A stretch of 64,000 bases of DNA from Candidatus Nomurabacteria bacterium (GTDB lineage: Bacteria; Patescibacteriota; Patescibacteriia; HK-STAS-PATE-3). The translations under genes were made by a program, and so were the position numbers. Below the pieces are notes generated by a model, which had not been told where the DNA came from, ran no database searches, and saw only the letters and a list, made by a program, of their open reading frames with translations. Location of the stretch: positions 256,001 to 320,000 of the forward strand of contig CP060223.1 of assembly GCA_023898465.1 (NCBI GenBank), written 5' to 3'. This document shows, piece after piece, positions 9,524 to 45,547 of the stretch. The first letter of the stretch is position 1; every line of letters begins with the position of its first letter.

Positions 9524-9598
9524 GGGTCCATAGCTCAATGGTAGAGCAACTGCCTTTTAAGCAGTGGGTTGGTGGTTCGAGCCCACCTGGACCCACCA
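9524..9598 (+). tRNA. tRNA-Lys (anticodon UUU), CCA encoded
   Basis: Cloverleaf read by eye: acceptor GGGTCCA/TGGACCC, anticodon stem ACTGC/GCAGT with loop CTTTTAA, T-loop GGTTCGAGCC, terminal ACCA. Confidence 0.85.
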
Positions 9599-9662
9599 GT
9601 CATATCGCGCTTTTTGCATACCCAAGAAGCGAGACCCAGCATAGCGTGGGTCTCGTGTGAGT

Positions 9663-10079
9663 TCAGACGCCTTTGCGGGCGTGGGGATTGTGGCGATAGA
9701 TCGCCATTCCCGGCTTTGCGGTACTGGGAACCTCGATCAGGATATCTCCGCTAGCACCGAAGACGTTTCGCGTCGTTGCCCCGAGGTCAACACGCAGGGT
9801 TGTCAGAGGCGCTGCTCCGAGCGGATCCCCGAGACAAATAATGTCTCGATCATGCAGCGTCACTCCTTGTTTGAGGCTGGCCGTATGCGTTCGTTGGAAC
9901 TGCACACTGCCGAGTACGCCAATCTTGATCCAGTCGGTCTGCGTAGCCGCTTGCGTCGACATAGTACCCCCATTCTTCCAGTGAAAGGCACGCACGGATC
10001 TCATCCTGAGAATGTGCAAATCTTGCCACGGAGTGTAGCGCTGTGGATTTTCTTTGTCAAGCAAAACGGACACACTCAA
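9663..10079 (-). CDS. Hypothetical protein (high-GC island, first gene after tRNA-Lys)
   Basis: 138 aa ORF on the opposite strand immediately downstream of the tRNA; about 58% GC; no family recognised. Confidence 0.4.
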   Translation of the reverse strand: MSVSVLLDKENPQRYTPWQDLHILRMRSVRAFHWKNGGTMSTQAATQTDWIKIGVLGSVQFQRTHTASLKQGVTLHDRDIICLGDPLGAAPLTTLRVDLGATTRNVFGASGDILIEVPSTAKPGMAIYRHNPHARKGV

Positions 10080-10100
10080 GTGAGGTGTCCGTAGTTGGGG

Positions 10101-10898
10101 TTAGTTGACGGAGGCGATCTCTTCATCAGGGATTGCGGCTATCAAGCGTCCGAGCGCCTTTTGCAGCGAAAGATTAGAGCGGGCTAAGCGTTCATCATAT
10201 CGGAAGAAGTGAAAGGGGATAGCAGAGGGGTCGGTCAACGCCATTTGTCCAAGCGCTCCAAGCTGCTGGAATACTGCCCCAAGATCGAGTTCGAGGTCGA
10301 ACAGGAGCTCCCAATCAATGCAAGATCGAAGCGCTTCCCAGGGTAGTGGCTCTTCCATGCAGCATGAGCGCCCGGCCAGCATTCTGACAAAGTGGCAGAG
10401 CCCAGGGTTGAAGAAGCTTTTTCTCCTTTGATCAGTCAGCAAGGTGCTTCTTGGGTCAAAGGGGTACACGGTGTCGTCCTCTCCCTGCATGAGCCATCCC
10501 TTGAGCAGCTCAAGATCAACCACGCTGGTGACCAAATCTTGGGTGGCGAGGGCCTTGCGATCAAAGCTCACGATGTCGCCCCAGGGGATCGGCAGACAGA
10601 TTGAGGCAACAAGTTCCACCCAAGCACCTAGTGTGTCTTGGCGATCCTCTGGGACAACCAAGAGAAAAGAATCAAGAGTTCTGGGAAGTGCCATAGCACC
10701 AAGGGCGGAGAGAAAGTTCCCGGCTTTTTTTCCTACAGCGTCGATGATGAGGCTTCGTATAGGCTCACCATCAGTATCTTCCAAGATGCTTTGAGAATCC
10801 TCAAGACTTGAGCAGACGGTGATGGTGTGGCAGTTGATCCGAGCTGCCAAATGGCGGGCTCGTTTCTGACTACCAGAAAAAACCAAGAGGTGTGCCAT
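10101..10898 (-). CDS. Hypothetical protein (high-GC island)
   Basis: 265 aa ORF contiguous with the previous gene; no recognisable motifs. Confidence 0.45.
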   Translation of the reverse strand: MAHLLVFSGSQKRARHLAARINCHTITVCSSLEDSQSILEDTDGEPIRSLIIDAVGKKAGNFLSALGAMALPRTLDSFLLVVPEDRQDTLGAWVELVASICLPIPWGDIVSFDRKALATQDLVTSVVDLELLKGWLMQGEDDTVYPFDPRSTLLTDQRRKSFFNPGLCHFVRMLAGRSCCMEEPLPWEALRSCIDWELLFDLELDLGAVFQQLGALGQMALTDPSAIPFHFFRYDERLARSNLSLQKALGRLIAAIPDEEIASVN

Positions 10899-10975
10899 AC
10901 TCAGACCTCCGTTGAGTTATGAAGGTGCTTCCTCCTATAGAGAAGTGTAGACGCATTGCGCATCTTCGACAATAC

Positions 10976-11003
10976 TTGACAACCCACTTCACAGGAGTAC
11001 ACT
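10976..11003 (+). promoter_or_regulatory. Sigma70-like promoter inside duplicated leader module (copy 1)
   Basis: TTGACA, 16-nt spacer, TACACT; the identical element recurs at 14573-14600. Confidence 0.5.
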
Positions 11004-11225
11004 AAATGCACAATTGGTGGCGATCTCTGCCTGGCACTGACCAGGTTGTCCGGAGACGCCATGTTTTTGTATGCGCGTGTTCTTCCTCCTTGCCGCAGGG
11101 TGTAGCTCGGCTCCGCTCGCTACCCATTTCTCGGCATCGGTCTCTTTGCGATGATCGAAACGAAGAGCGTCTTTTTCTACTCTCCTGCAGGGGCGGTGCG
11201 GGAGCGCGGAATAGTTCCGGGCTTC

Positions 11226-11243
11226 ATTTCCTCACATGAGGAA
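11226..11243 (+). promoter_or_regulatory. Conserved 8-bp inverted repeat TTTCCTCA-CA-TGAGGAAA in leader (copy 1): candidate operator or RNA hairpin
   Basis: Perfect 8+8 inverted repeat with 2-nt spacer; identical copy at 14730-14747 upstream of the paralogous lipoprotein gene. Confidence 0.45.
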
Positions 11244-11290
11244 AGCGGCTTTGTTGCCGTTTTGCACCTTGAAATGCATGGAGGTTCGCC

Positions 11291-12028
11291 ATGACTTGGC
11301 GTTTCCGACTCTTCCTGCTCATGGCCATCGCGTTGACCATGACACCCCTCGCTTTCATGACCGGCTGCCAGGAGCTGCCGACGGAGGGGGATTCACAGGA
11401 TCAAGTGGTTGAGAGTCCGGAAGCTCAACCCGGTCCAGCGATTCAGTCTACTGGGCCCGAATGGTATAATCAGGTCGTAAGTGAAGCAAAGTACACATTG
11501 TGCCAGCTTCGAAACGGCACATCGCATGAGGTCTATCAGGGTAAGGCTATGGGTGATTGGCCCTACCCACATCAAGGGGATTGTTGTAACGCCCTTGGTG
11601 TAGTCCGTCAATATATGTACGGTGGTGGCTCTCCAGGACCGCTTGGCGAATGGAATGGCTTCCAGCAAGGCGGTTGGTGCAAGTTCTTTGTCAACTTGGT
11701 GCTCTACCGCTCTAGCTATGGCTACCCGGGCGGACATTTGCTCTTGCCCACTTCTACGTATCGTTACAATAATCCACGCCCGGTTTCCGAAGCACAACCT
11801 GGATGGATCTTGCAGTCAGAAACACTACCTCATACTGCGATCGTAGTAGAACGACTAGGCGGTGGCTTGGATGTAATCGATTCAAACTGGATCGGAACTT
11901 ACAAGCGTCCGGACGGAAGTTATTACTACTCATATGCCATCGCAAGGCATGAAATCACAAATACGGAGTTGGATCGCTACGATTTCATGGCATATCGTCC
12001 GCATGAGGCGTGCGTGCTGCATAACTAG
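11291..12028 (+). CDS. Secreted lipoprotein with CHAP-domain peptidoglycan amidase/endopeptidase
   Basis: Signal peptide plus lipobox (LAFMTGC). CHAP catalytic Cys motif GGWCKFFV and His motif LPHTAIVVERLGGGLDVIDSNW. Confidence 0.7.
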   Translation: MTWRFRLFLLMAIALTMTPLAFMTGCQELPTEGDSQDQVVESPEAQPGPAIQSTGPEWYNQVVSEAKYTLCQLRNGTSHEVYQGKAMGDWPYPHQGDCCNALGVVRQYMYGGGSPGPLGEWNGFQQGGWCKFFVNLVLYRSSYGYPGGHLLLPTSTYRYNNPRPVSEAQPGWILQSETLPHTAIVVERLGGGLDVIDSNWIGTYKRPDGSYYYSYAIARHEITNTELDRYDFMAYRPHEACVLHN

Positions 12029-12101
12029 ATAGTGGGGGGTGCTGGAAAGTTTTTCAGTTCCCCCCACCTCCCACAAAGTCAATTATTTACTTCATAAGTA
12101 T

Positions 12102-12617
12102 ATGAAAAAAATCCAAATAGTCTTTCTCTTATTTTCAAGCATTGTTCTTGCGTCGGTGATTTTTTATTCCGGACATGCTATTTCATATAAAAATACAACC
12201 TACGGATATTCTTTTAGTACAATAAAAAAGTCTAATATTAAAGTTCTTGATCCAGCGCTTGTTCAAGTTTCAATTATAGGAGAAGAGGTTATTGAGGAGA
12301 GTCCAATAATAAACATATATGCTATTAAGTTGGAGCAAGATTCTTTGTCTGCAACCCAAGAACTTGAAACGTGGGTAGGGGAAGATCTTAATGGTTTCTC
12401 TGATATTAATATTCAGAGTACAACGACCGAAACAGAAAAAATAATTAACGTTACTTATACGGGAGGGGGGATGTCTGGAAGTATTAAATACGTCGGATTT
12501 TATGTTTTCAATCAGGAAGAAAAAACAATAATTAAGGTAGTAGCTTCTCAGTATAATGATAATATGGAATTGTTTGAGGCCTACAAAAAAATTCTTTCTT
12601 CCTTTCAGTTAATATAA
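12102..12617 (+). CDS. Hypothetical membrane-anchored protein (low-GC insert)
   Basis: Start taken at MKKIQIVFLLF (single N-terminal TM); about 33% GC against about 57% for the neighbours; no known domain. Confidence 0.45.
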   Translation: MKKIQIVFLLFSSIVLASVIFYSGHAISYKNTTYGYSFSTIKKSNIKVLDPALVQVSIIGEEVIEESPIINIYAIKLEQDSLSATQELETWVGEDLNGFSDINIQSTTTETEKIINVTYTGGGMSGSIKYVGFYVFNQEEKTIIKVVASQYNDNMELFEAYKKILSSFQLI

Positions 12618-13255
12618 TGACCACCACTCATCGTCTCCTCATATTACTCATTGTCGTAGTTGCCGCAGGCTTTCTCTATCTTGGATTAAGATCAGATTCC
12701 TCCGATGTAACAACGACGAACAAAACAGTCAACAAAGATTTCCGTGAACTTGAAATGCTCAGTTCAGCTGGTCACAAGGTGTTTCAATCAGAGAATTATG
12801 ATTTCACCTATACGATTGATCATGGTGTTGACTGGAGCGTTAGCGAGGCTGCAGAGCCGACTTTGCTCACCACTTGGTTTTCTTTACCAAATCCAAATAG
12901 TGAAGAGGAAGAAAGAGATGATATTCCGAATGGGTTTAATACCTTTGAAAAAAATAGTTTTCGACTTGATGTATATCCTAACTCAGGTTCAGTAAGTCCA
13001 AATGGAGAAGCGGAGCTAAAAGATTGGTTAAAAAATGATCTTAATAGTGAGTATATTCCTGGAAGCTTTTTAACCTTATCCATTGCAAGAAACCGTTTAT
13101 TCAAAGTAGTTGATTTTCAGGGGATTGATGTGCGAGAGGCGCATTATTATCTATTTGGCTCTGCATTTGTATATGTCTTTTCAAGCGGTGATTTCACTGA
13201 GCAAGAAATGCGCGAGTTTATTAGCGGTTTTACCTACGAAAGAGCGCCTTTATAA
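12617..13255 (+). CDS. Hypothetical membrane-anchored protein (low-GC insert)
   Basis: N-terminal TM LLILLIVVVAAGFLYLGL; overlaps the previous stop by 1 nt (co-transcribed); no known domain. Confidence 0.45.
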   Translation: MTTTHRLLILLIVVVAAGFLYLGLRSDSSDVTTTNKTVNKDFRELEMLSSAGHKVFQSENYDFTYTIDHGVDWSVSEAAEPTLLTTWFSLPNPNSEEEERDDIPNGFNTFEKNSFRLDVYPNSGSVSPNGEAELKDWLKNDLNSEYIPGSFLTLSIARNRLFKVVDFQGIDVREAHYYLFGSAFVYVFSSGDFTEQEMREFISGFTYERAPL

Positions 13256-13462
13256 GCGCTTCATCTCATCTTTATTTCTTTACTTGACGCATCTCAGTAG
13301 TCCGAGCATAATCATTTTTGGGTAGTAACCCACGTTTTGATAAGCAGGAGAAGTACGGTAGATTCGATGGATGCGCCATGCGCACCCCATCTGCGTTGGA
13401 TTGTCACACTGAACCTCGGGTCAGGATAGCACCCTGACAAATCTGGAAAGAAAGGAGGCGTC

Positions 13463-14470
13463 ATGAACCGCCTGTTTGTCGTACTCGCGCTGATCACCAT
13501 CGGGGCTCTGGGTTTTGTTGGCTGCGGCGGTAAGGACGCCGCTACGAAGCCGGAAGAAATCCGCAGTCCAGATCAGATCGTGCAGTCTGAGATTGTCTAT
13601 ACCGTGAACCCAGACTACTCAGGGGTGAATGTTTCGTGGAAAACAAACATCCCGACAGTTGGAAGGGTGTACTATGGTAGGACTCCTCAACCAACTGACT
13701 ACGTCATCGAGGAGGTGAGCACTACTCAACATTTGTTGTGTGCACCTCGACTCAGGGGAGATGCGCTCTTCTACTTCCAAGTGCAATCATCCTTTTCCGA
13801 GGAAGTGATTAGCGCTCGGGAACCGAGCGAAGGCGATACACTTCGCACCCCACGATGGGTTGATTGGTCTCCACCTACCGTAAGATGGGTCGATCCTCGA
13901 GAAGGCGCAATAAAGGGCGGGACGATTGATCTCACTGTTTCGGCAAACGAATACGTTGTCAACGGGGTGGTAGAGGTGAAATTCTTTATCGATGGCAGGG
14001 TCATCGCTGTAGTGACTGAACCCGATGACGGTGATAAGATCTTCGTCGTGCATGACTTCAATACTACCCAGCTCACCGATGGCTTGCATAGCTTTCACGC
14101 GTTGGCAACAGATGTAAACGGTAACAGAGAGTCAAGGGGAATTACGGTCGACATCGACAACTCGAAGCCGGTCATCTATCGATGGGATGCTCCGAGAAAT
14201 CAGCGGGAGATCGGGAATTCTATCAATTTGCGAGTGGTGGCTCAGGACTTTCGTGGTGAACACGTCGATGATGTGTACATCACCCTCGATGGTCAACCAT
14301 TTGCGAGGCTTGAGGTGTGTGAACTGCGAGCTAGCGGCGTAGGAGATGTGTGGTGTAGAGACGTTGATACGTCGACGCTGTCACCCGGTCAGCACTACTT
14401 CGGTGCCGTTTCAGTAGATCATGCTGGCAACGAGTCAGATCCGGTCTACATCGGCGTCATCAAGCAGTAG
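13463..14470 (+). CDS. Secreted lipoprotein with tandem Ig-like (Big/FN3-like) domains
   Basis: Lipobox LGFVGCGG; repeated beta-rich segments ending in DNSKPVI and VDHAGNESDPVYIGV, typical of bacterial Ig-like domains. Own promoter TTGACG-17-CATAAT at about 13287-13315 and RBS AAGGAGG. Confidence 0.6.
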   Translation: MNRLFVVLALITIGALGFVGCGGKDAATKPEEIRSPDQIVQSEIVYTVNPDYSGVNVSWKTNIPTVGRVYYGRTPQPTDYVIEEVSTTQHLLCAPRLRGDALFYFQVQSSFSEEVISAREPSEGDTLRTPRWVDWSPPTVRWVDPREGAIKGGTIDLTVSANEYVVNGVVEVKFFIDGRVIAVVTEPDDGDKIFVVHDFNTTQLTDGLHSFHALATDVNGNRESRGITVDIDNSKPVIYRWDAPRNQREIGNSINLRVVAQDFRGEHVDDVYITLDGQPFARLEVCELRASGVGDVWCRDVDTSTLSPGQHYFGAVSVDHAGNESDPVYIGVIKQ

Positions 14471-14572
14471 CCTTTCCAGTCCGTCAGGAATCCAACAGAG
14501 CCTGGGATCATCGATCTCGGGCTCTTCTCTTTTTGATACGCTCCAGAATGAAAAAGTGAAGTTTACTATTAC

Positions 14573-14600
14573 TTGACAACCCACTTCACAGGAGTACACT
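14573..14600 (+). promoter_or_regulatory. Sigma70-like promoter inside duplicated leader module (copy 2)
   Basis: Identical TTGACA-16-TACACT as at 10976-11003. Confidence 0.5.
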
Positions 14601-14793
14601 AAATGCACAATTGGTGGCGATCTCTGCCTGGCACTGACCAGGATGTCTGGAGACGCCATGTTTTTGTATAGGCGTATTCCACCCTCCCTTGCCGTGGCGT
14701 TGGGGAGCGCGGAATAGTTCCGGGCTTCATTTCCTCACATGAGGAAAGCGGCTTTGTTGCCGTTTTGCACTTTGAAATGCATGGAGGTTCGCC

Positions 14794-15492
14794 ATGACTT
14801 GGCGTTTCCGACTCTTCCTGCTCATGGCCATCGCGTTGACCATGACACCCCTCGCTTTCATGACCGGCTGTCAGGAGCTGCCGACGGAGGGGGAGACTTC
14901 GGTGATCTCTGATGAGTTGCCGGATGCTTCACCCTCAGCTCAGTCAAGCCCGATGACTTGGCCCTCTTCGATCCAGGATTTCAAACTCCCTTATGATGGG
15001 ATCCGGGATGCATGCGGGGGTCAGATTTGGAAGGTTGTTTGCGGGTACGGATGTGGTTATCATCACAACACAAACTACATGGCCGCCGCGTACCATTCGA
15101 TTGATCTTGTACGGCAGGATGCGCCGACCACTCATAGCGCAGTACTCGCTCCGGCGCGTGGCATCGTTTCGTTTGTCGGATGGAGGAATGGGTACGGTTG
15201 GTGCGTGGAGATGGATCATCGAAACGGCTGGAAGTCGCTTGTGGCCCATCTCGAAACGGATCCTTGGGAATTCGTCCATACCTATGACGACCTGCGGCAG
15301 GGGACTTTCCTGGGCTATGCAGGGAACAGCGGAGCGAGTACGACACCCCACATTCACTTCTCGGTGTGGCGGAACAACGTCACTCATACGCTCGATGGCG
15401 TATCGTTGATCAACCCGCGTCTAAATGGGCGATACAATTCCGGCAATGATTATGTTGCGCCACCGACGGGAAATCCGAACCCGATTCCTTAA
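14794..15492 (+). CDS. Secreted lipoprotein with M23 (LytM) family metallopeptidase domain
   Basis: N-terminal 33 aa are identical to the CHAP lipoprotein (MTWRFRLFLLMAIALTMTPLAFMTGCQELPTEG). M23 motifs HSIDL (HxxxD) and GNSGASTTPHIHFSV (HxH). Confidence 0.75.
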   Translation: MTWRFRLFLLMAIALTMTPLAFMTGCQELPTEGETSVISDELPDASPSAQSSPMTWPSSIQDFKLPYDGIRDACGGQIWKVVCGYGCGYHHNTNYMAAAYHSIDLVRQDAPTTHSAVLAPARGIVSFVGWRNGYGWCVEMDHRNGWKSLVAHLETDPWEFVHTYDDLRQGTFLGYAGNSGASTTPHIHFSVWRNNVTHTLDGVSLINPRLNGRYNSGNDYVAPPTGNPNPIP

Positions 15493-15668
15493 CACGATAG
15501 CGGAGAAGGTTTTTCATTAGAAAGCCTTCTCCGCTGTCTCTCCTCTCTATGAATAGTCATGTTGCTATTCTTTCTGTTAGCGATCACCATCCTTTTAGTT
15601 GATTTAGGATTAAAACTATAATTACGTTATTCTGGAGCATTTTCTCATAATATCGTAATCTTACTACT

Positions 15669-16682
15669 ATGAATCGTTTTTCTATCTTCATCGCAGTGTT
15701 CGTTCTTATCAGCGCAGTGGTTTATGCTTTCTTTTTTGCTACATTATTTGGGGAAAAGAAAGCTATTGAAGGAGTGCAGGGACCTGCTTTTATGTTTGCA
15801 ACCCTGCCTGACTCAGATGCATCTGCCGCGATAAGCATTTTTGAGATTCCTACAATGTCGAAGCGAAAGGCTGAAGACACATCTTTGCCAATGCATTTTC
15901 TTAAAAAACTAGGAGATCCGAGAGAGTATTTTGATCCCATACTTTCTTCAAGTGGTGCATATTTGGCTTTTAATCGTAATATTGGGGAGCCGAAACAGGA
16001 TAAGACAAATTTAGTAATACTTGCAGCTGACGGAAAAGAAAGGAGCGTGGAGAGCGGCTCTGCTGGAGATATAGGAATAGGAATGCTCACGCCCTTGCAG
16101 TGGAGTGCTGATGAAAAAACGCTCTACGCTTTTTATACACACGCAACTGAAGGTAATATCGTAGGCCTGGTGGCAATTGATGTGGCAACTTTAAGCCAAC
16201 AACGAATTGAAAAAATTGATGATCTACGTGTAAGTAACTACGTCTTTGATGAAGTCGGAAATACCTACGGTTTTGAACCGCACTATCGATTCCGCCCTGA
16301 AGACGAGGCTCAAACAACCTTTTATCGAATTTCTTTGACTAGTGGCGAAACAAAAAGCTTTACACTCCAGCAATCGAGTTTGGACGATCTCTTGACCGTA
16401 GATCCAAGCGGGAGATACCTCGTGTACGCAAACGGAGATGATTTTAATTCTCGTAACATTTGGATGTATGACATGGAAACCGGTGAGGAGCGCGCGTTGA
16501 CTGAAAATGCTGTTGTTAATGAAATTTTGCCCTGGAAAGATGGATATTTGGTATTTCTGGAGGAAAGTGTAAACACCCCCGCAGAAAAAACACTTGTATC
16601 ATACGATGTAAATTCTGGCATTCGCAAAGTTCTTTTAGAAAATGTTACAGGGACGTTCCGGCTTCTTGGTTGGTATCCCTAA
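15669..16682 (+). CDS. Membrane-anchored TolB-like beta-propeller (PD40/WD40-like repeat) protein
   Basis: N-terminal TM; repeated D-x-S/D-G-x-x-LxF motifs (DPSGRYLVYANGDD, SADEKTLYAF) typical of PD40 propeller blades. Confidence 0.5.
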   Translation: MNRFSIFIAVFVLISAVVYAFFFATLFGEKKAIEGVQGPAFMFATLPDSDASAAISIFEIPTMSKRKAEDTSLPMHFLKKLGDPREYFDPILSSSGAYLAFNRNIGEPKQDKTNLVILAADGKERSVESGSAGDIGIGMLTPLQWSADEKTLYAFYTHATEGNIVGLVAIDVATLSQQRIEKIDDLRVSNYVFDEVGNTYGFEPHYRFRPEDEAQTTFYRISLTSGETKSFTLQQSSLDDLLTVDPSGRYLVYANGDDFNSRNIWMYDMETGEERALTENAVVNEILPWKDGYLVFLEESVNTPAEKTLVSYDVNSGIRKVLLENVTGTFRLLGWYP

Positions 16683-16940: not shown

Positions 16941-17600
16941 ATGTTAGGTTATCTTTTGCTCATTATATCGGTTGTAGAGTTTTTTATTGGCCTGTACCTT
17001 ATTTTTCGCTATGAAAAAAGCCAGGCAACAACATATTACGGTCTCTTTGCAATAAGTGTTGCGATCTATGTTGCCGCGAACGGTTTCGGATTTACCCGAG
17101 CTTCTGATAACGAGTTTATTTTTGAGCAACTTGCTTGGTTTGGCGGCTTACTTAGCGCCCCATTTATCCTTGGCTTCAGTTATAGCTTTCCTAGCCCTAA
17201 AAAATATCCCACTGAGCTATTTCCGTGGGTAATTTGGCCAGTAGTGTTATTTGGCGCAGGAATTTTTACTTCAAATATTTTCCTGGAGAAAACGTATATT
17301 TATTCCTTTGCCGAAGGCTACACTGCGCCAATCGGTGTCTTTTTCTGGTTCGCCATTGCAGTATTTGCGATGTATTGGATATGGGCAATACGAAACCTGC
17401 TGTATACGAGATTGCACACAAGCGGTTTTTATAGGAATTTTCTTACCATTGTGCTCATAGGGCTTTTTTCATCACTGCTTATTTCAGCAATTTTTGATAT
17501 TTACATTCCCTTAGTTTCAGTCACGCGCTACGGATATATTGGAGCATTATTCTCGTCTATTTGGCTGTTTACTACCGCGTATTTAATGGTGAGGAAGTAA
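16941..17600 (+). CDS. Stand-alone histidine-kinase N-terminal 7TM sensor-domain paralog 1 (HisKA_7TM-like)
   Basis: 219 aa, 6-7 TM. Alignable to the N-terminus of the HK at 22990: RY.KS.AT.YYGLFA...LAWFGG...PFILGFSYSFP.PKK versus R.ENTSSRLFGATV...FLLFSWYFPKK. Ends exactly where the kinase linker would begin. Confidence 0.65.
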   Translation: MLGYLLLIISVVEFFIGLYLIFRYEKSQATTYYGLFAISVAIYVAANGFGFTRASDNEFIFEQLAWFGGLLSAPFILGFSYSFPSPKKYPTELFPWVIWPVVLFGAGIFTSNIFLEKTYIYSFAEGYTAPIGVFFWFAIAVFAMYWIWAIRNLLYTRLHTSGFYRNFLTIVLIGLFSSLLISAIFDIYIPLVSVTRYGYIGALFSSIWLFTTAYLMVRK

Positions 17601-17601
17601 G

Positions 17602-18261
17602 ATGATTGGATATATATTACTCATTATCTCAGTTGTTGAAGTAATACTCGGTTTTTATTTGATTTTTCGATATGTAAAAAGTCCAGCAACTATATATTAC
17701 GGCCTATTCGCGCTAAGTGTAGCACTCTATGTAGGTGCAAACGGGTATGGTTTTAGTCCGTTTTCAGAAAATGATATATGGCTGGAAATAATTGCCTGGA
17801 TTGGCGGGACCTTTACCGCTCCTTTTATTCTTGGCTTCAGTTACTCATTCCCTTATCCACGTAAGTCCAATAAGGAAATACTGTCTTTAGTTCTTAGTCC
17901 ACTCGTTTTTTTCTTCGTCGTAATACTTTTTTCTAATACTTTTGTAGATCATAATAGTGTTATCAGCTTTGATGAAGGATTTCAAAGACCTGTCGGGGAG
18001 TTACACTGGTTTGTATTATCAGTATTCTTTTTCTATTGGGTTTGGTCTTTTATTGAACTAGTAAAGAGTCGAAAAAAATCCGACGGCTTTAATAAGAATT
18101 TTCTTCTTATTTTAATTATAGGCTTAGTTTTTTCTTTGTTGGTTTCGGTATTTACTAACATCATTCATCCACTTGTCGATGTTTCAAAGTTAGGTTATAT
18201 GGGCCCCTTAGCCTCTTCAATCTGGCTATTTATTACTGGGTACTTGATATTGAGGAAGTAA
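17602..18261 (+). CDS. 7TM sensor-domain paralog 2
   Basis: About 50% identical to paralog 1; 1-nt intergenic gap. Confidence 0.65.
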   Translation: MIGYILLIISVVEVILGFYLIFRYVKSPATIYYGLFALSVALYVGANGYGFSPFSENDIWLEIIAWIGGTFTAPFILGFSYSFPYPRKSNKEILSLVLSPLVFFFVVILFSNTFVDHNSVISFDEGFQRPVGELHWFVLSVFFFYWVWSFIELVKSRKKSDGFNKNFLLILIIGLVFSLLVSVFTNIIHPLVDVSKLGYMGPLASSIWLFITGYLILRK

Positions 18262-18932
18262 TGAACACCTTTCATTTAGTTTTACTTTTTACACTTTTCT
18301 TTATTCACGCGACTCTCGCAATATGGATGTTGCGTAGATATGTGCAGACGCTATCCATTCGTTATTACTCAGGCTTTTTATTTGGACTAGCACTTATTGC
18401 ACTATTAAATGGTTTATTGCTGTTATTTGGCGGTCAGGAGAGTCAAACAGTCCTTCATAAGATCGGCTTTATCTCAGGCACCTTCACTTTTGTGATGTTC
18501 TTTATGTTTAGTAAGTACTTTCCAATTTCTACTGCAAGACCAAACTCCCGCGACATTCTTTTTTGGGTAATTCCGATTACATTTTTTATTCCATTCATAC
18601 TTTTTAATCAGCAGTTTATCCAGTCTGTGATTATAGAAAATGGAATAAGTAAGCCTACATTTGGAGTCTGGTATACACCATTTATGTTAGTTTTGGCCAC
18701 CTTTGTTCTGGGGGCTATCTATAATCTCATACAGAAATATAAAATAACCACTGAACTTGAAATTAGGAAGAACATTAGAGACATTACGGCAGTATTTTTC
18801 GTATCAGGACTCCTTGGCTTTTTGTTGGACGTTGTGTTGCCAAGGTTTAATGTTTATACGGCACATTACTTTGCCATTGAATCTTCACTTTTTGTTGCGC
18901 TAACTACTGCAATTATTATTGCAAAGAAGTAA
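18261..18932 (+). CDS. 7TM sensor-domain paralog 3
   Basis: Same length class and topology; overlaps the previous stop. Confidence 0.6.
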   Translation: MNTFHLVLLFTLFFIHATLAIWMLRRYVQTLSIRYYSGFLFGLALIALLNGLLLLFGGQESQTVLHKIGFISGTFTFVMFFMFSKYFPISTARPNSRDILFWVIPITFFIPFILFNQQFIQSVIIENGISKPTFGVWYTPFMLVLATFVLGAIYNLIQKYKITTELEIRKNIRDITAVFFVSGLLGFLLDVVLPRFNVYTAHYFAIESSLFVALTTAIIIAKK

Positions 18933-18933
18933 G

Positions 18934-39666: not shown

Positions 39667-42600
39667 ATGGACTCTGCCCCATTAACACTACAAACGAAGA
39701 CACTGCAGAGGTCTTCCGATCTAAATAATTACAGACTCTATCGCGCAGCTCTTGAATGGGAGTTGATTGATCCTATTGTCATAGAAGACCGGGATGACAT
39801 GCATTCCGAAAGTAGTTGGCGTGATCGTCTTGAGCCGTATCATCATCAAGTAACTAACCTAATAACTTTTTGTCGTCGCCTACCTGTTACTTTACTGGCG
39901 GATGATGTCGGGTTAGGAAAAACAATTAGTGCTGGCCTAGTTTTAAGCGAGTTAATTTCGCGCGGGAGAATTTCAAAAATATTAATAGTTTGCCCAAAAA
40001 TACTTCGAGATCAGTGGAAAGAAGAATTGGAAATAAAGTTCCGAATTCCGTCCACAATTGTGACAGGAAGAGAATTAATTACGGCAAAGCCTCCTGAAGA
40101 ACCAGGAGCGGTAATTACCACATACAATACGGCCAGACTGTATTTAGATAGAATTGACCAGAATGGTTTTGAAATATTGATACTTGATGAGGCGCATAAA
40201 TTGCGGAATCTATATGGTGTTGACCCAACACCTCAAGTTGCAATTAAATTCCGTAAAGCTCTGGCTGACCGGATGTTTAAGTACGTATTAATGTTAACTG
40301 CAACGCCGATCCAGAACAGACTATGGGATCTCTACTCGTTGGTTGACTTATTAACCGTTGCACGCGGCCATGAAAATCCCTTTGGAACGCCAGGTATTTT
40401 TGCGAGAAAATTTATTGCAGATAGTCGCACACAAGCGCGTCAGCTTAATCCGGAGATGCGGGATGAGTTTCGCTCAATTATTTACGGTTATATGTCTCGG
40501 GTTCGTCGTGGAGATGCAAAACTCCACTTCCCAGAGCGGGTAGTACAGTTGCATAAAGTTGACCCAACACCAGAAGAATTGCAGTTGATCGGTGTGGTCG
40601 GAAAATCTATACAACAACTGAATGCGCTTACACAAATTGTAATCCTCCAAGCTTTGGTGAGTAGTCCAGAAGCGCTAATAAAGATGTTAGAAGGAATGGC
40701 TAAAAAAGGAACCGTACCGCGTGAGGTGTTGGCGAACGTTAAGGAATCAGCCAAAGAAATTCAAATCACTACAAAACTAAAAGGTTTGGGCGCGTTAGTT
40801 GAAAAACTTAGAAAGGAGCAACCCAATACTTGGCGGGTGGTAGTTTTTACAAGATGGCGAGAAACTCAAACAACTATCGAAACTTTTCTTGAAAAGCAAG
40901 GAGTAAAATGCGGCTTGATAAATGGCGATTCAAGTAAGCGAAATCAGGAAACAATCCAAAGATTTAAAAAAGACTTACCAGACATTAATGTAATTATTTC
41001 TACTGAAGCAGGTTCGGAGGGCGTTAACCTTCAGGCCGCTAATGTTTTGGTTAATTACGATCTCCCCTGGAATCCAATGATAGTGGAACAAAGAATAGGT
41101 CGTATTCAAAGACTTGCTTCTAATTATGCAAATGTTTCTATTTTTAATATTGTTTTGCAAAATACCTTTGAAGAATATATTGTAGGGCGCTTGATGGAAA
41201 AGTTGCAGATGGCTTCTCATGCAATTGGGGATATTGAAGCACTATTGGAAGCATCCGGCATTGATGAAGGTGAAGAAAATGGCTCAAGTGGTTTTGAAGA
41301 AAAAATTCGCCAGTTAGTAGTTGCATCTTTAGCTGGAAAAGATGTTGAGCAGGCAACTCGTAAAGCTGAACAGAGTATTTCAGAAGCTAAAACAGAATTA
41401 GACCATGAAGAAAAGAACATTAATGCTTTACTTGGGGGGATGAGTGATTCTCTAGATTCTGGTCCAAGATGTCCGAAGCTTCCTCAAACTACTAAGTCGA
41501 TGGATGTCCGTGATTTTACTACGGCTGCTCTTATGAGCTTAGGCGCGGAACTACATCCAAAAAAGGATGGTTTATTAGTTTCACAACTTGCTGGGAAAAA
41601 AGAATTAATCCGATTTGATAATAACACTCTGAGCAGTGAAGAGGAGAGTGTCTTATATGCACCGGGAACTTCAACTTTTGAACGCTTAGTCCATAAAGTT
41701 GCAAATGTAGGAAAACACATTGTTGAAGACCTTGATAAAAACCCCCAACAGCAAATTGAGAAAGTAAGTCGTCAATGGGTCGAAAGTTTTGGCGGAGACT
41801 TCGAAAATGTAACGGTAGAGGACGTTTCTCGATGTTTTGCAGGAGTAGCAATAATTCGTGCAAGATCAACAGTAGCTCACGATAGTTATGAGCGTCTCAT
41901 TGAGGTTTCGTGCGCTCCCACTGAGCATTTCAGTTTTGTGACAAGAACGGGATTGGAACCCATCGGAGACTATATTGAAAATCCGACATCTGTTGGTGCG
42001 CTTTCAGAAAAATTAATTGAAAAAGCCAGCCAAGACTCGAGTATTCTTGAGTTCTGTAGATTTTATTTAGAACGAAGATCTCAAGAAATTGCCTCCGCAG
42101 GAAATGACGAAAGAAAAAAGAAAAAGCTTGAGGATGAGTTTACGCCCCGTCTTGAATTTTCCCTAGTCGGTCTTGAGGGCAAGGTTCATCGGATAGTTAA
42201 AAATCAGGTCTCTTATAGAATTGAACGTGAGGGCCAATACAAAAGTACCCTCATGATAACCCCCTCTTCTGGGCAAGTTGATATGCCGGGGATGGGACAA
42301 TGCATGAAAACAGGTAAGACTGTACCGAGCGATTGCTTAGCAAAGTGCGAAATAAGCGGACTTATAGTATTGCGGCATTTTCTTGATCAATCAGAGATCA
42401 GTAATCGACTGGCGCTCCCTGAGCACATCGTTTTATGTACGTTAAGCAACAAGCGAGTGCTAGCGGACGAAGCTATAAAATCAGATGTTACGGGCAAACT
42501 AGTCGCAAAGAAGTTTTTAAAAACATCTTCTCTGAGTGGCAAATTCGCTGAACCACAGTTCATTAACACTTGTGAGTTTACAAAAACAGAAGTTCTGGAA

Positions 42601-43194
42601 AGCGAAATTGCGGTCAGCCAGATTTCAGGAAAAAGATATCGCATTGATGAGCAACTTAAATCCGCAGTTTCAGGAAAACTAGGCCATCGACAAGAATTTG
42701 TAGCAAGTAGTATTTCATCAGCCCCACTTCTTGAAGAAGAAGCCATTCGTTCGGTCACTGGAAAATTTTGTGCACCAATGGAAGCGAGGCCCTGCACTTG
42801 GAGTGGTCGAAAGTGTCACCCCGAAGACCTTAGGACTTGCGAGTTGACCGGAGTCCAAATTCATTCAGAGTACGTAACGCTCGAACCACCAATTCGTTTA
42901 GAAACCCTAAATAATCTTTTGAATGGCACGAGGAGCAAATCTGACAAATTGGAAGTATGGCCTTCACTTTCAAATAGCGTTACAGCTTTATTAAAAGCAA
43001 AACGTTGTAAAATTGAAACAGCAGAAGTTTCACCTAGTGACGATATTTTGGCCGCTTCTATAGAGCTTCGAACTTTTCTAGGCCTGCGCGTGAGTCACAT
43101 TGGCGTACTTTATTCAATAAAGGATGGATCCGTAGTCGGGCGTGTTGCTAGAGGCAAGCGTGGTGATAAGGGCTGGAATCAAACTAAGAACTAA
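39667..43194 (+). CDS. SNF2-family helicase with about 600-aa repeat-containing C-terminal extension
   Basis: Motif I DDVGLGKTISAG, motif II LILDEAHKLRN, motif III LTATPIQNRLWDL, motif VI QRIGRIQR. C-terminal half has no known domain but contains about 8 short S/T-G-K repeats. Confidence 0.85.
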   Translation: MDSAPLTLQTKTLQRSSDLNNYRLYRAALEWELIDPIVIEDRDDMHSESSWRDRLEPYHHQVTNLITFCRRLPVTLLADDVGLGKTISAGLVLSELISRGRISKILIVCPKILRDQWKEELEIKFRIPSTIVTGRELITAKPPEEPGAVITTYNTARLYLDRIDQNGFEILILDEAHKLRNLYGVDPTPQVAIKFRKALADRMFKYVLMLTATPIQNRLWDLYSLVDLLTVARGHENPFGTPGIFARKFIADSRTQARQLNPEMRDEFRSIIYGYMSRVRRGDAKLHFPERVVQLHKVDPTPEELQLIGVVGKSIQQLNALTQIVILQALVSSPEALIKMLEGMAKKGTVPREVLANVKESAKEIQITTKLKGLGALVEKLRKEQPNTWRVVVFTRWRETQTTIETFLEKQGVKCGLINGDSSKRNQETIQRFKKDLPDINVIISTEAGSEGVNLQAANVLVNYDLPWNPMIVEQRIGRIQRLASNYANVSIFNIVLQNTFEEYIVGRLMEKLQMASHAIGDIEALLEASGIDEGEENGSSGFEEKIRQLVVASLAGKDVEQATRKAEQSISEAKTELDHEEKNINALLGGMSDSLDSGPRCPKLPQTTKSMDVRDFTTAALMSLGAELHPKKDGLLVSQLAGKKELIRFDNNTLSSEEESVLYAPGTSTFERLVHKVANVGKHIVEDLDKNPQQQIEKVSRQWVESFGGDFENVTVEDVSRCFAGVAIIRARSTVAHDSYERLIEVSCAPTEHFSFVTRTGLEPIGDYIENPTSVGALSEKLIEKASQDSSILEFCRFYLERRSQEIASAGNDERKKKKLEDEFTPRLEFSLVGLEGKVHRIVKNQVSYRIEREGQYKSTLMITPSSGQVDMPGMGQCMKTGKTVPSDCLAKCEISGLIVLRHFLDQSEISNRLALPEHIVLCTLSNKRVLADEAIKSDVTGKLVAKKFLKTSSLSGKFAEPQFINTCEFTKTEVLESEIAVSQISGKRYRIDEQLKSAVSGKLGHRQEFVASSISSAPLLEEEAIRSVTGKFCAPMEARPCTWSGRKCHPEDLRTCELTGVQIHSEYVTLEPPIRLETLNNLLNGTRSKSDKLEVWPSLSNSVTALLKAKRCKIETAEVSPSDDILAASIELRTFLGLRVSHIGVLYSIKDGSVVGRVARGKRGDKGWNQTKN

Positions 43195-43195
43195 T

Positions 43196-44686
43196 ATGAA
43201 CCCTCTACTTACAAAAACCGATTATCTTCTTTACCGGGAATGCCCAAAGAATGTTTGGTATAAAATCCAAAAACCTGAATTGTATGCTACATCGGAGCTA
43301 ACAGAGTTTGAAAAATCGATAATGGAAACAGGTAATGAGGTTGAAAAGATTGCAAGGCAACTTTTTCCAAACGGGGTGTTAGTAACTTATCGTGATGCGC
43401 GCGGTCAAGCTGAGACACAAAAGCTATTGGCGGAGAACAAGGATGTGATTTTTCAGCCAGTTTTTGTCAAAAATAACTTTTTGGCTGCTATTGATGTTCT
43501 ACAAAAAGAAAAGAATGGCAAGGGCTACAATGTTTACGAAATAAAATCGACTAGTGATGTAGATAAGAAAACACATTTTCACGACCTAGCATTTCAAGTA
43601 AACGTTCTCAGAATGACAGGCCTGGGAATTAATAAATCATTTGTCATTCATCTAAACTCTGAATATATTCGAAAGGGAGAAATTGAGCTGGATCAGTTAT
43701 TTAAAGTATCAGATGTGACGGATGAAGTAGAAAGTCTTTTACCGGATGTTGCGACTGAGGCGGAAGAAGCATTGAAGTATATTAGCCAAACTTCTGAACC
43801 AGAGGGGTACTGCTGCTGTATTTATAAAGGTCGATCAAGGCATTGTTCAACCTTTCAGCTAGCGAACCCCGAAGTACCCGAATATAGTGTCCACGATATT
43901 TCTAGGATAGGGGTAAGCAAGGCTAAATTAAAAGAGCTAATTGACGGAAGTATTTTTCACCTGGACAAGATTCCGCCACACATTAAATTAAGCGAAATTC
44001 AACAAGGTCAAGTTGAAACCTATAAATTGAATAAGGTATTAGTAGATAAGGAAAGAATTGCGGAAGAATTTAGTGGTCTCACATTCCCACTTTATTTTCT
44101 TGATTATGAAACATTTCCATCAGCAATACCAAGATATGATGGCTTTTCACCATATAAACAAATTCCGTTCCAGTATTCTGTTTACAAACTAGATTCAGTC
44201 GAGAGTGAGCCAACTCATTTTGATTTTTTGTACTCTGGTCCCGAAGACCCCAGCAAGCACTTTGCCGAGTCTTTAAGGGAACATATCGGGGATAAAGGCT
44301 CGATCATCGTTTGGCATAAAGACTTCGAGTGTGGCAGAAATAATGAAATAGGTAGTCGAATTCCTACTTCGAAGGCTTTTTTTGACTCTGTTAATCAGCG
44401 AGTATACGATCTCGAAGACATTTTCAAGAAACAATACCACGTTCATCGAGATTATAAGGGAAGCACATCTATTAAAAACGTATTGCCTGTTTTAGTGCCA
44501 GAATTAACGTATAAAGACCTTGAAATTCGTGATGGTGGCAGTGCAGCGGATAGTTGGGACAAAATAATTAGTGGTGTATATAACGAGACAGAGAAAGAAA
44601 AGGTAATAAAAGATTTAAAGATTTATTGTGGTCTTGATACATTTGCAATGTATGCTATTTGGAATTGCTTGAACAAGCTACTCTAA
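43196..44686 (+). CDS. Cas4/RecB-like PD-(D/E)xK nuclease domain protein with probable Fe-S cluster, plus a C-terminal domain of unknown function
   Basis: N-terminal Cys (YRECPKNVWY); motif II IDVL; motif III YEIKS; Cys cluster EGYCCCIYKGRSRHC. Start taken at MNPLLTK (ATG 43196), overlapping the SNF2 stop region. Confidence 0.6.
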   Translation: MNPLLTKTDYLLYRECPKNVWYKIQKPELYATSELTEFEKSIMETGNEVEKIARQLFPNGVLVTYRDARGQAETQKLLAENKDVIFQPVFVKNNFLAAIDVLQKEKNGKGYNVYEIKSTSDVDKKTHFHDLAFQVNVLRMTGLGINKSFVIHLNSEYIRKGEIELDQLFKVSDVTDEVESLLPDVATEAEEALKYISQTSEPEGYCCCIYKGRSRHCSTFQLANPEVPEYSVHDISRIGVSKAKLKELIDGSIFHLDKIPPHIKLSEIQQGQVETYKLNKVLVDKERIAEEFSGLTFPLYFLDYETFPSAIPRYDGFSPYKQIPFQYSVYKLDSVESEPTHFDFLYSGPEDPSKHFAESLREHIGDKGSIIVWHKDFECGRNNEIGSRIPTSKAFFDSVNQRVYDLEDIFKKQYHVHRDYKGSTSIKNVLPVLVPELTYKDLEIRDGGSAADSWDKIISGVYNETEKEKVIKDLKIYCGLDTFAMYAIWNCLNKLL

Positions 44687-44690
44687 ACCT

Positions 44691-45392
44691 ATGAGCTTTC
44701 TTAAGATTTTTAGTGATGATTCTAAAGACAAGCCAAAAGAAAATGATAGTCGGAAACCTGAATGTCCATACTGTCAGGGCGTTTTAGTTAAAATTCCTGC
44801 TAGAAAAACAAAATGTTTTCACTGTGGGAAATATATTTTTGTACGAACACAGACAAAGGACAGAAAGCTCGTTTTGGTTACTGAAGAAAATTCGGCCGCG
44901 ATAGACTCTGAATGGGAGTCAAAACAAGCCGCTACGATCACTTCATTGGTGGAGAAAGTAGATTTTACAAAGAAAAAAGAAGGTCTGCGCGAAGGGTTTG
45001 GGGACAAGGAACCCTCCGTTAGTGACATAAAGTGGGGCTTGTGGAACAAGAGGCTTCAGGAAGCAATGAAACGCAATGATTTTTCAGAACTTTCAGGAAT
45101 ATATTTTCAAATGGCTCTGCGCTTGCACGAAAGTGGAAAAGACAGCTTTAAACTTCAGGGCCAGGCTCAAAAAATGTTTTTGTTTAAAGAAAAGCAAAGC
45201 GGTGTTGTTTCTAGCGTAGAGGTTTTTTCTAGAGATGGCTGTGAAGAATGTAAGAAAATAAACGGAAAGAAATTTGTTATTTTTGAAGCACTAAAACTCA
45301 TGCCACTACCCGTTCAATCCTGCACAAACAAACTGAATAAGAATGCGCCCAATGGTTGGTGTCGATGCACTTTTCTTCCTTTTATAGATTAA
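44691..45392 (+). CDS. Zn-ribbon-containing hypothetical protein
   Basis: CPYCQG...CFHCGK N-terminal C4 ribbon; C-terminal Cys pairs (CEEC; CRC); 4-nt gap after the nuclease gene. Confidence 0.5.
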   Translation: MSFLKIFSDDSKDKPKENDSRKPECPYCQGVLVKIPARKTKCFHCGKYIFVRTQTKDRKLVLVTEENSAAIDSEWESKQAATITSLVEKVDFTKKKEGLREGFGDKEPSVSDIKWGLWNKRLQEAMKRNDFSELSGIYFQMALRLHESGKDSFKLQGQAQKMFLFKEKQSGVVSSVEVFSRDGCEECKKINGKKFVIFEALKLMPLPVQSCTNKLNKNAPNGWCRCTFLPFID

Positions 45393-45547
45393 GACTTTGC
45401 CACCAATACTTTTGTTTCGGTCGCTGAGCATCCACCCTTTTTATCCCCCTCTGCCGATCTTCTAAAAAGAAACGGGAATTTAATCACGTAAAAAATAAAG
45501 AGGACCCATTATAACCCCTTGCCTCCGTCATTCGCGAACGACGGGGT

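Follow-up and report, generated by a model that had tools for sequence, protein, structure and literature searches.

Two short, adjoining genes of a Candidatus Nomurabacteria bacterium, here termed ORF A (12102..12617, forward strand) and ORF B (12617..13255, forward strand), encode proteins that are anchored in the membrane and are predicted to carry a PsbP/Mog1-like domain outside the cytoplasm, and the two genes follow one for a putative lipoprotein peptidase. Positions are those of the window, the whole 64,000-nucleotide stretch of DNA that was analysed. Among 16 distinct loci with a gene of the ORF B family and readable upstream sequence, a papain-like peptidase gene lies directly upstream in 11 and a peptidase gene within about 2 kb in 13; the family is thus linked to hydrolase genes, and the immediate adjacency that is generic to hydrolase–immunity gene pairs is conserved across divergent genomes. 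The reading we favour, with confidence a little short of even, is that A and B are cognate binders, most likely of the inhibitor or immunity type, of the surface peptidases encoded beside them. We found no account in the literature of a pairing of peptidases with PsbP-like partners in Patescibacteria.

The sequence-only reading of this stretch had proposed two open reading frames at these positions, each with a single transmembrane (TM) segment and no recognisable domain, and all of this was borne out. Both are real genes: the longest open frame in 2000 shuffles of the region was 158 codons and none of the 2000 (0/2000) reached at least 171, so the open frames are not due to chance. ORF A (171 aa) is identical to H6760_01265 at NCBI, annotated as hypothetical in a MAG of Candidatus Nomurabacteria, and ORF B encodes 212 aa. 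The two overlap by 1 nt (TAATG), which couples A to B and makes their co-transcription plausible; for the 5' leader of the A transcript, a leaderless start has been raised as a possibility. Kyte–Doolittle averages over 19 residues exceed 1.6 only at residues 1–28 in both proteins, with the anchors at about residues 4–24 in A and 6–24 in B, and lysine and arginine residues precede the TM segment in each. A single N-terminal helix, N-in, is therefore predicted to hold each protein in the cytoplasmic membrane with its binding domain displayed outside. Neither protein matched Pfam, NCBIfam, PHROGs, PADLOC or PDB sequences; word-indexed homolog searches seeded with A or B returned only self-matches, and phmmer searches of both against all window ORFs found no paralogs. 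A role in phage lysis or in a defence system was rejected, there being no PHROG, PADLOC or viral match.

Structure prediction and comparison gave no enzymatic fold for either protein. The models of both ectodomains show an antiparallel β-sheet flanked by helices with PsbP/Mog1 topology, A's model having been built with the B-family alignment and so not being independent of B's. At the level of sequence, neither A nor B belongs to PsbP, PsbP_2, DcrB, DUF1795 or LpqN by Pfam or NCBIfam match, and among 30 members of the B family one matches PsbP_2 (E 0.03) and two match DUF4367 (best 2.7e-4). The assignment would be the first structural annotation for a protein family that no database describes. 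This binding fold houses the muramidase-neutralising Tsi3 and the lipase immunity protein TplEi, and it is also found in chaperones (EagT6, SciW), in lipid and envelope factors (LpqN, DcrB) and in PsbP itself, a generality which counts against the inhibitor reading.

By full-length HMMER similarity, ORF B is a member of an undescribed family of TM-anchored proteins of about 205–250 aa, with an N-terminal TM segment and an ectodomain of about 170 aa. An exhaustive HMMER search recovered about 35 cluster representatives, which are close to B in length and share a loop of the NRDTPNGFNT type; before trimming, the family profile also matched other TM proteins weakly, but these matches disappeared after TM masking and were not counted. 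A word-indexed search with the family alignment returned only four proteins, and a sub-alignment search for related loci yielded five in genomes, five in metagenomes and none in viral sequences. The signature loop is encoded at 12890..12949 (forward strand; residues 92–111) and is placed between strands 5 and 6 of the model. Its family consensus is N.NTSE..NRDTPNGFNT; that of B itself, NPNSEEEERDDIPNGFNTFE, keeps D-x-PNGFNT but has two substitutions (R to D, T to I) where the family is near-invariant. The loop is well ordered in the model (pLDDT 88–97), the linker between TM segment and domain poorly ordered and variable (pLDDT 52–66, residues 21–40), and the family alignment shows neither a conserved double glycine nor any other conserved cleavage motif beyond the TM segment. 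B is 36% identical to its counterpart in the syntenic locus L001 whereas the nearby P-type ATPase is 62% identical, which indicates fast evolution of B. ORF A lacks the loop, and its resemblance to the family falls short of significance (hhalign probability 1.2%; E 0.049), whereas in L001 the gene at its position belongs to the B family (hhalign probability 98.6%, E 7.6e-16). We propose from collinearity, position and the biased model that A and B are two divergent paralogous proteins, the sequence link of A not being significant.

The gene upstream (11291..12028, forward strand) encodes a lipoprotein with a lipobox ending in MTGC and a cysteine peptidase-like region resembling NlpC/P60 and CHAP enzymes below the thresholds of those families. 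The earlier label of CHAP hydrolase remains plausible in that sense, but Pfam gives no match to the protein at E<=5, and it falls below every family threshold; for CHAP (PF05257) it lies below the gathering threshold, and its homologs reach only E 0.0075–0.036. BLASTP links it to L009:973-1779 (4e-8) and L004:6355-7233 (1e-5), both of which weakly match CHAP/Amidase_6, and phmmer links it to L020:4758-5504 (3e-16; CHAP E 0.036 for the latter). The candidate catalytic residues are C130, H181 and D197/N199, all four invariant in alignment A6, and the papain-like order of Cys then His is kept among homologs. The best PDB matches of the A6 profile are the NlpC/P60 enzymes RipA and RipB (E 0.1–0.2), over query positions 136–221, which span both catalytic motifs; the first-listed RipA/RipB chain is a catalytic-Cys mutant. 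No match was found between this protein and phage records. A GC-rich, terminator-like hairpin without a T-tract (12032..12067, forward strand; −28.7 kcal/mol, z −3.87, with equal stability in 0/200 shuffles) begins 4 nt after its stop codon, and in L001, L004, L007, L013 and L015–L021 the upstream peptidase gene likewise has such a hairpin after it, in three cases with a T-tract. With such a hairpin in between, A/B may be transcribed separately from the peptidase gene; co-transcription of the two is uncertain.

Across the 16 loci, the gene directly upstream encodes a Peptidase_C39_2-like secreted protein or lipoprotein in nine (L001, L007, L013, L015–L020) and a CHAP-like lipoprotein in two (the window and L004). 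An M23 peptidase gene lies two genes upstream in one further locus, a C39_2 gene lies 1.2 kb away on the opposite strand in another, two have a secreted protein without a family name upstream, and one (L005/L012) has no peptidase nearby. The other neighbours vary by locus (ABC transporter, 7TM genes, tRNA synthetase). The pairing is not one-to-one: in most loci the B-type gene comes after C39_2, but in the window after the CHAP-like gene, and in L020 it is a propeller protein that comes after the CHAP-like gene.

What this arrangement might do bears on the question of how ultrasmall, epibiotic Patescibacteria, whose surface proteome is mostly unannotated, breach or remodel walls and yet spare their own. 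We envisage a recurrent two-part module in these bacteria, in which a GC-richer gene, closed by a terminator-like hairpin, would supply a surface-tethered lipoprotein peptidase (C39_2 or CHAP/NlpC-P60-like, sometimes M23), and one or two AT-rich genes after it would supply membrane-anchored binding proteins that restrain the peptidase at the producer's own surface. The lipobox of the peptidases and the basic residues before the TM segments of A and B predict that both partners lie on the outer face of the membrane, and the peptidase target is proposed to be either the cell's own wall or that of a host. Tsi3 blocks Tse3 with a loop insertion, and by analogy the loop of B is a candidate for the contact with the peptidase. 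The earlier suggestion of immunity proteins is thereby partly supported, linkage and fold both fitting it. Of the two outcomes that it had named as refuting, homologs consistently apart from hydrolase genes and an enzymatic fold, neither was observed. Several observations weigh against the favoured reading: immunity proteins caught in an arms race would not usually keep a loop near-invariant while the rest of the family diverges, two positions of that loop are altered in B, a terminator-like hairpin separates the peptidase gene from A and B, L005/L012 lacks a peptidase, the pairing is loose, and A has a fold model that depends on the B-family alignment and no significant sequence link to that family. 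The locus in any case defines a module that is concrete, recurs and can be tested, in which a lipoprotein peptidase stands with a membrane-anchored PsbP-like partner bearing a near-invariant loop. If the partners are inhibitors, the hydrolase–immunity principle would come to cover enzymes exported by the Sec/lipoprotein route in a lineage that is host-dependent and monoderm-type, and there would be specific protein pairs with which to assay binding and inhibition; otherwise the family would still mark a module of variable surface genes whose GC mosaic is unusual and conserved.

The sequence-only reading had given the pair about 33% GC within an island of about 57%, and had offered a separate, later insertion of A and B as its alternative. 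The measured values are 36.2% over 12040-13256 (A 32.0%, B 39.3%) and, for the flanks, 53.3% (9600-12030) and 52.8% (13300-15500), against a window mean of 46.5% and about 48–51% in core genes. The dip is locally sharp, yet 7.9% of windows of the same size are equally low because 15.5–24 kb and 40–45.5 kb are also AT-rich; the window has further AT-rich blocks that encode membrane proteins. The composition of A and B is very unlike that of the peptidase genes at all codon positions, GC3 included, and the drop begins directly 3' of the hairpin. A recent, unrelated horizontal acquisition into the hydrolase island would account for this step from 53% to 32–39% and back, for the lack of any detectable homolog of A, for the tRNA-Lys gene 2.5 kb upstream and for the integrase/RadC/ParE context of the homologous locus L014, but we think it highly improbable. 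It is largely refuted by L001, which has the same order of peptidase, low-GC TM gene(s) and a peptidase with the same signal peptide, and the GC drop recurs across B-family loci and is a property of the family. Moreover, no direct repeats flank 12040-13256, no mobility gene or integrase occurs among the adjacent ORFs scanned, and no relatives were found in viral contigs, so that a recently acquired genomic islet is not supported.

Three further explanations were weighed. They could be cognate partners without being inhibitors, acting as membrane-anchored escort, scaffold or activator of the lipoprotein peptidase in the manner of the Eag chaperones for T6SS effectors, of NlpI for MepS, or of DcrB and LpqN in lipoprotein and envelope biogenesis; we rate this as possible but distinctly less probable than inhibition, since A and B are predicted to face outwards, unlike the cytoplasmic Eag proteins, and since fast divergence and an AT-rich, cassette-like character are closer to immunity genes than to housekeeping assembly factors. 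Somewhat less probable again is that they are surface proteins unconnected with the peptidases, evolving fast and serving, for instance, in adhesion, in host contact or as phage-receptor decoys, and that they adjoin peptidase genes only through a shared island of variable surface proteins. The hairpins that suggest separate transcription units, the contrast in composition at all codon positions, the window's other AT-rich blocks with membrane proteins, the lack of any peptidase at L005/L012 and the loose match between partner type and peptidase type are all in keeping with it, but same-strand, immediate adjacency to a papain-like peptidase in 11/16 loci, despite otherwise unrelated neighbours, is hard to explain in streamlined genomes without functional coupling. 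It is very unlikely, finally, that A and/or B are substrates whose ectodomain is released by an adjoining C39-type peptidase, as C39 processes exported peptides: enzymes of the C39 family are processing proteases and the linker of B is poorly ordered and variable, but the family has no conserved cleavage motif there and the neighbour in the window is CHAP-like rather than C39_2.

The inhibitor reading has precedents in layout and in fold. In the staphopain–staphostatin and SpeB–Spi systems a dedicated inhibitor gene lies immediately 3' of the gene for a papain-like cysteine protease, as A and B do. Staphostatins are, however, cytoplasmic β-barrels and Spi is propeptide-like, unlike A and B in fold and location. 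Tse3 and Tsi3, a peptidoglycan muramidase of the Pseudomonas aeruginosa T6SS and its immunity protein (PDB 4luq), share no sequence similarity with A or B. The partner in the window is a Sec/lipoprotein-exported papain-like peptidase and not a muramidase, A and B are TM-anchored, a terminator-like hairpin separates the genes, and inhibition is a candidate function only; nor do A and B sit beside a T6SS effector as Tsi3 does, their neighbours being Sec-exported lipoprotein peptidases, with no T6SS gene among the window ORFs inspected. The T6SS lipase immunity proteins Tli4/TplEi and PA3488 (PDB 5h7y, 7wdk) have a PsbP/Mog1-like domain but are T6SS-dependent, two-domain proteins with phospholipase partners and are unrelated in sequence to A and B. 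The DUF1795 chaperones of the Eag group (EagT6/PA0094, SciW) bind effector TM helices in the cytoplasm before secretion, whereas A and B carry their own TM anchor and an outward-facing domain. The actinobacterial and enterobacterial envelope proteins LpqN, MTC28, Apa and DcrB show no sequence similarity to A or B and, in contrast to these, no pairing with peptidase genes is known for them.

A wider extension, which we regard as doubtful, is that Patescibacteria possess a polymorphic effector–immunity system without a dedicated secretion apparatus, composed of arrays of lipoprotein wall peptidases (C39_2-like, CHAP/NlpC-P60-like and M23) with paired immunity proteins. The arrays would share a recombination-prone promoter, 5' UTR and signal-peptide cassette, each peptidase would be paired with a fast-evolving, AT-rich, membrane-anchored immunity protein, PsbP-like or β-propeller, and the peptidases of the epibiont would open the host wall at the contact zone while the partners shield its own peptidoglycan. 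Polymorphic toxin–immunity loci (Zhang et al. 2012, PMC3482391) likewise join a conserved N-terminal export part to differing catalytic domains. Their likeness in the window is an identical cassette before the CHAP-like and M23 genes, and in L020 a C39_2-like as against a CHAP-like enzyme; small, fast-evolving, compositionally distinct genes after each enzyme are a further likeness. The differences are that the shared part here is only a lipoprotein signal peptide and 5' UTR with no trafficking domain, that the enzymes stay lipid-anchored on the producer, that no dedicated secretion system is evident, and that toxicity and immunity are putative.

The cassette itself occurs twice. The first copy (10973..11391, forward strand) comprises a promoter-like TTGACA-16-TACACT, a long 5' UTR, a Shine–Dalgarno sequence and the lipoprotein signal peptide MTWRFRLFLLMAIALTMTPLAFMTGCQELPTEG, and the second (14570..14894, forward strand) stands in front of an M23 lipoprotein gene; the copies are 95–99% identical, a 94-nt indel aside. 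An Rfam search over 9–16 kb found tRNA only, and the shared 5' UTR thus corresponds to no known riboswitch. The M23 metallopeptidase (14794..15492, forward strand; Pfam PF01551, E 2e-18) has the signal peptide of the 11291 gene, and a hairpin with a 19-bp stem lies directly 3' of its stop codon (15496..15538, forward strand). Placed after M23 as A and B are after the CHAP-like gene is a gene (15669..16682, forward strand; 42% GC) for a TM-anchored protein of 337 aa with weak likeness to a TolB-type β-propeller (E 0.02). Its product is homologous to L020:1995-3119 (phmmer 2.6e-9), which also follows an M23 lipoprotein and matches Peptidase_S9_N at 1.7e-8, so that M23 followed by a TM β-propeller forms a parallel module in the window and in L020, a point in favour of the cognate-binder reading. 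Between the two modules of the window lies the gene for a Big_7 Ig-domain lipoprotein (13463..14470, forward strand), with its own promoter-like site and Shine–Dalgarno sequence and followed by a terminator at 14497-14525.

ORF A (12102-12617, + strand, 171 aa) and ORF B (12617-13255, + strand, 212 aa) lie where the sequence-only reading had placed them and overlap by a single base (TAATG); the product of A is identical to NCBI H6760_01265, encoded on a 1,082,586-bp contig of a Candidatus Nomurabacteria MAG. The GC contrast which that reading described is real, but its figures (33% against 57%) need correcting, as A has 32.0% GC, B 39.3% and the whole finding 36.2%, with flanks of 53.3% and 52.8%, in a window of 46.5% overall whose core genes are at about 48-51%. 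The drop affects all codon positions, and GC3 is 0.27 in A and 0.32 in B, whereas the adjoining lipoprotein genes reach 0.54-0.62 and core genes about 0.50. These ORFs are not a chance outcome of AT-rich DNA, since an open frame of at least 171 codons arose in 0 of 2000 shuffles. As previously noted, the sole hydrophobic segment of each protein is N-terminal, and because it is preceded by K/R residues the predicted topology is an N-in anchor with the remainder of the protein outside. Neither matches anything in Pfam, NCBIfam, PHROGs, PADLOC or the PDB sequences, which bears out the earlier view that they lack a recognisable domain.

A word-indexed search with B returned only B itself, and an exhaustive HMMER search of 1.84 billion representatives gave 35 proteins at E<=1e-3, 11 of them at E<=1e-10. 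With few exceptions they span 200-250 aa, align from end to end and share the N-terminal transmembrane helix; their alignment yields the signature F..pN.NTSE..NRDTPNGFNTS...l.vY.N....F..W....DGidS.G.YYY...yi.v..s.D....M...l.sF., most of which is retained in the window B, although it reads ERDDIPNGFNT and so departs at two near-invariant positions. No Pfam family covers these proteins, the weak matches within the group being to DUF4367 (two members) and PsbP_2 (one member), and no relatives were found on viral contigs. Judged from these alignments, B is a member of a real, undescribed family.

The AlphaFold2 model of B, built with the family alignment, is confident (pLDDT 89.3, pTM 0.78) and places a transmembrane helix and a poorly ordered linker before a domain whose strands and pair of helices succeed one another as b-b-b-b-b-[signature loop]-b-a-b-b-b-b-a-b. 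Structures listed with the model are, with their scores, BT_1490 (3hlz_B, 11.3), Tsi3 (4luq_C, 8.9), PsbP (2xb3_A, 8.6), Mog1 (5yfg_A, 8.2), TplEi/Tli4 (5h7y_A, 8.0), EagT6 (PA0094; 1tu1_A, 7.8), LpqN (6e5d_A, 7.4), SciW (6xrb_A, 6.5) and DcrB (6e8a_A, 6.2). For A, neither the word-indexed search nor phmmer against the window ORFs found homologs, and hhalign gives its similarity to the B family a probability of 1.2%, which is not significant; with transmembrane segments masked it is the top non-member match to that family, yet reaches no better than E 0.049 in a set of 839 ORFs. A may be a loop-less paralog of B, putatively acting jointly with it.

The only three lipobox lipoprotein genes in the 64 kb are all at this locus and on the + strand: the gene previously labelled CHAP (11291-12028), one with a Pfam Big_7 Ig domain (13463-14470) and one with Peptidase_M23 (14794-15492; Pfam E 2e-18). 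The CHAP label stands in part only. The 11291-12028 protein matches nothing in Pfam, even at E<=5, but it has homologs at L009:973-1779 (BLASTP 4e-8), L004:6355-7233 (BLASTP 1e-5) and L020:4758-5504 (phmmer 3e-16), three of the related loci that carry B-family genes. Because its lipoprotein homologs in other loci have weak CHAP or Amidase_6 matches, because it retains the invariant Cys130, His181 and Asp197/Asn199, and because its small profile finds its best PDB matches in two NlpC/P60 endopeptidases, RipA and RipB (E 0.1-0.2 only, with alignments spanning both Cys/His motif regions), it is classed as a putative, sub-threshold NlpC/P60-CHAP-like peptidase.

This gene and the M23 gene are preceded by cassettes (10973-11391 and 14570-14894) that are 95-99% identical, set apart by a 94-nt indel, and contain a promoter-like TTGACA-16-TACACT, a long 5' UTR of 220-315 nt and the signal peptide MTWRFRLFLLMAIALTMTPLAFMTGCQELPTEG. 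The UTR segment GTGGCGTT.GGAGCGCGGAA.TA is conserved in L001 too (2070-2105), ahead of a C39_2 lipoprotein gene. As the cassette has no match in Rfam, it may be a cis-regulatory leader of an undescribed type, a substrate on which recombination exchanges catalytic domains, or both. A hairpin at 12032-12067 (-28.7 kcal/mol, z -3.9), without a T-tract, begins 4 nt after the stop codon of the 11291-12028 gene, and the GC drop starts directly past it; another, with a 19-bp stem, follows the M23 gene (15496-15538). The tRNA-Lys(UUU) gene (9524-9598) sits exactly at the rise to 53-58% GC, and 9600-10900 holds only unannotatable ORFs, including one of 265 aa on the minus strand without a family match, and no integrase.

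Loci with B-family genes (L001-L021) were gathered by exact-protein look-ups and pattern scans, and once duplicates were merged (L001=L002, L004=L010, L005≈L012) there were 16 distinct loci with readable upstream sequence, the window included. A C39_2-like peptidase gene lies directly upstream on the same strand in nine (L001, L007, L013, L015-L020; Pfam E 9e-15 to 3e-4, with partial or Pfam-silent cases at local profile E 1e-40 to 1e-61) and a CHAP-like lipoprotein gene in two (the window and L004), so that 11/16 have such a gene as the immediate upstream neighbour. L003 has an M23 lipoprotein two genes upstream, L014 a C39_2 gene 1.2 kb away on the opposite strand in an integrase/RadC/ParE context, L008 and L021 a secreted protein without family assignment, and L005/L012 no peptidase. 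Other neighbours are unrelated and differ by locus (ABC transporter, 7TM genes, tRNA synthetase). In L004, L006 and L007 the module, which is typical of Patescibacteria, lies in MAGs whose records bear the title 'uncultured Gammaproteobacteria bacterium' (TPA_asm binchicken, and in one case an ERP119705 co-assembly); either mislabelling or a reach of the family beyond Patescibacteria would account for this.

L001 is, by its P-type ATPase (62% identical to that of the window), a syntenic relative, with the order C39_2 lipoprotein, transmembrane B-family paralog (hhalign probability 98.6%), B homolog (36% identical to the window B; 4-nt overlap), another C39_2 lipoprotein whose signal peptide is that of the first, and a further AT-rich transmembrane protein. 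L020 consists of three successive modules, M23 with a transmembrane propeller, C39_2-like with B, and CHAP-like with a 382-aa transmembrane protein, the latter two peptidases having one common signal peptide. B-family genes lie 10-19 GC points under the adjoining peptidase gene in the window and in L001 (51.8% vs 34.9%), L004 (52.9% vs 41.7%), L007 (59.4% vs 43.9%), L013 (53.5% vs 35.1%), L016 (52.8% vs 38.9%), L017 (58.4% vs 45.8%) and L020 (55.4% vs 36.1%), with GC3 lower by up to 0.3, and this contrast holds across genomes whose B proteins share just 20-36% identity with that of the window. In all loci examined (L001, L004, L007, L013, L015-L021) a GC-rich hairpin starts within a few bases of the peptidase stop codon, with a clear T-tract in L018, L019 and L021. 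Judged by eye, the lipoprotein genes have GGAGG-type sites and the AT-rich downstream genes no obvious Shine-Dalgarno.

The sequence-only reading had named two findings that would refute its immunity idea, homologs unlinked to hydrolase genes and an enzymatic fold, and the analysis turned up neither. The linkage to hydrolase genes, together with a predicted fold that is of a non-enzymatic binding type and includes Tsi3, favours A and B as putative cognate binders of the surface peptidase encoded alongside, most likely inhibitor or immunity-type regulators, a reading we hold tentatively. Tsi3 blocks the peptidoglycan hydrolase Tse3 via three loops and has Mog1 and PsbP as structural neighbours (PMC3792639), so the fold class predicted for B is that of a proven loop-insertion inhibitor; the ordered, conserved loop of B would be the candidate contact element with the peptidase. 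PsbP/Mog1-like genes also occur beside toxin genes at the loci of polymorphic toxins, and an adaptor role was proposed for them there (PMC3482391). Against the favoured reading count the generic nature of the fold, the loose pairing of partner type with peptidase type, the one locus without a peptidase, the hairpin between the genes, which suggests separate transcription, and the invariance of the loop, which is uncommon among arms-race immunity proteins. A non-inhibitory escort or scaffold is the foremost of the less probable roles.

That A and B are independent, variable surface proteins seems rather unlikely, and that they are substrates of the peptidase very improbable. The separate, later insertion once offered as an alternative fares equally poorly: the same arrangement and GC mosaic recur in L001 and other loci, and are thus ancestral or moving as a unit. 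The fold is already known, as is the principle of a hydrolase encoded with a partner. The libraries and literature searched contain no description of the B family, of the conserved way in which Patescibacteria pair it with C39_2/CHAP-like lipoproteins, of arrays built with common promoter/UTR/signal-peptide cassettes or of the conserved GC3 drop.

After the M23 gene and its hairpin comes a transmembrane-anchored, weakly propeller-like protein (15669-16682, + strand, 337 aa, 42% GC), whose L020 counterpart (374 aa, phmmer 2.6e-9) matches Peptidase_S9_N. An M23 lipoprotein followed by a low-GC transmembrane beta-propeller-like protein is thus seen in the window (14794-16682) and in L020 (1247-3119): a conserved peptidase-partner pair, the second built on this plan. 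Further on (16941-20959 and 22990-25785) are six 7TM paralogs in tandem, about 219-236 aa long and at 30-43% GC, the first with a HisKA_7TM-type Pfam match, then a trio of small enzyme-like ORFs and a histidine kinase of 931 aa with several hydrophobic segments in its N-terminal part; similar 7TM genes directly follow the B homolog in L015 (1608-2911). A second AT-rich block (40000-45500, about 40% GC), with a 1175-aa helicase-like ORF (motifs by eye only) and ORFs of 514 and 233 aa, is a possible defence or mobile island.
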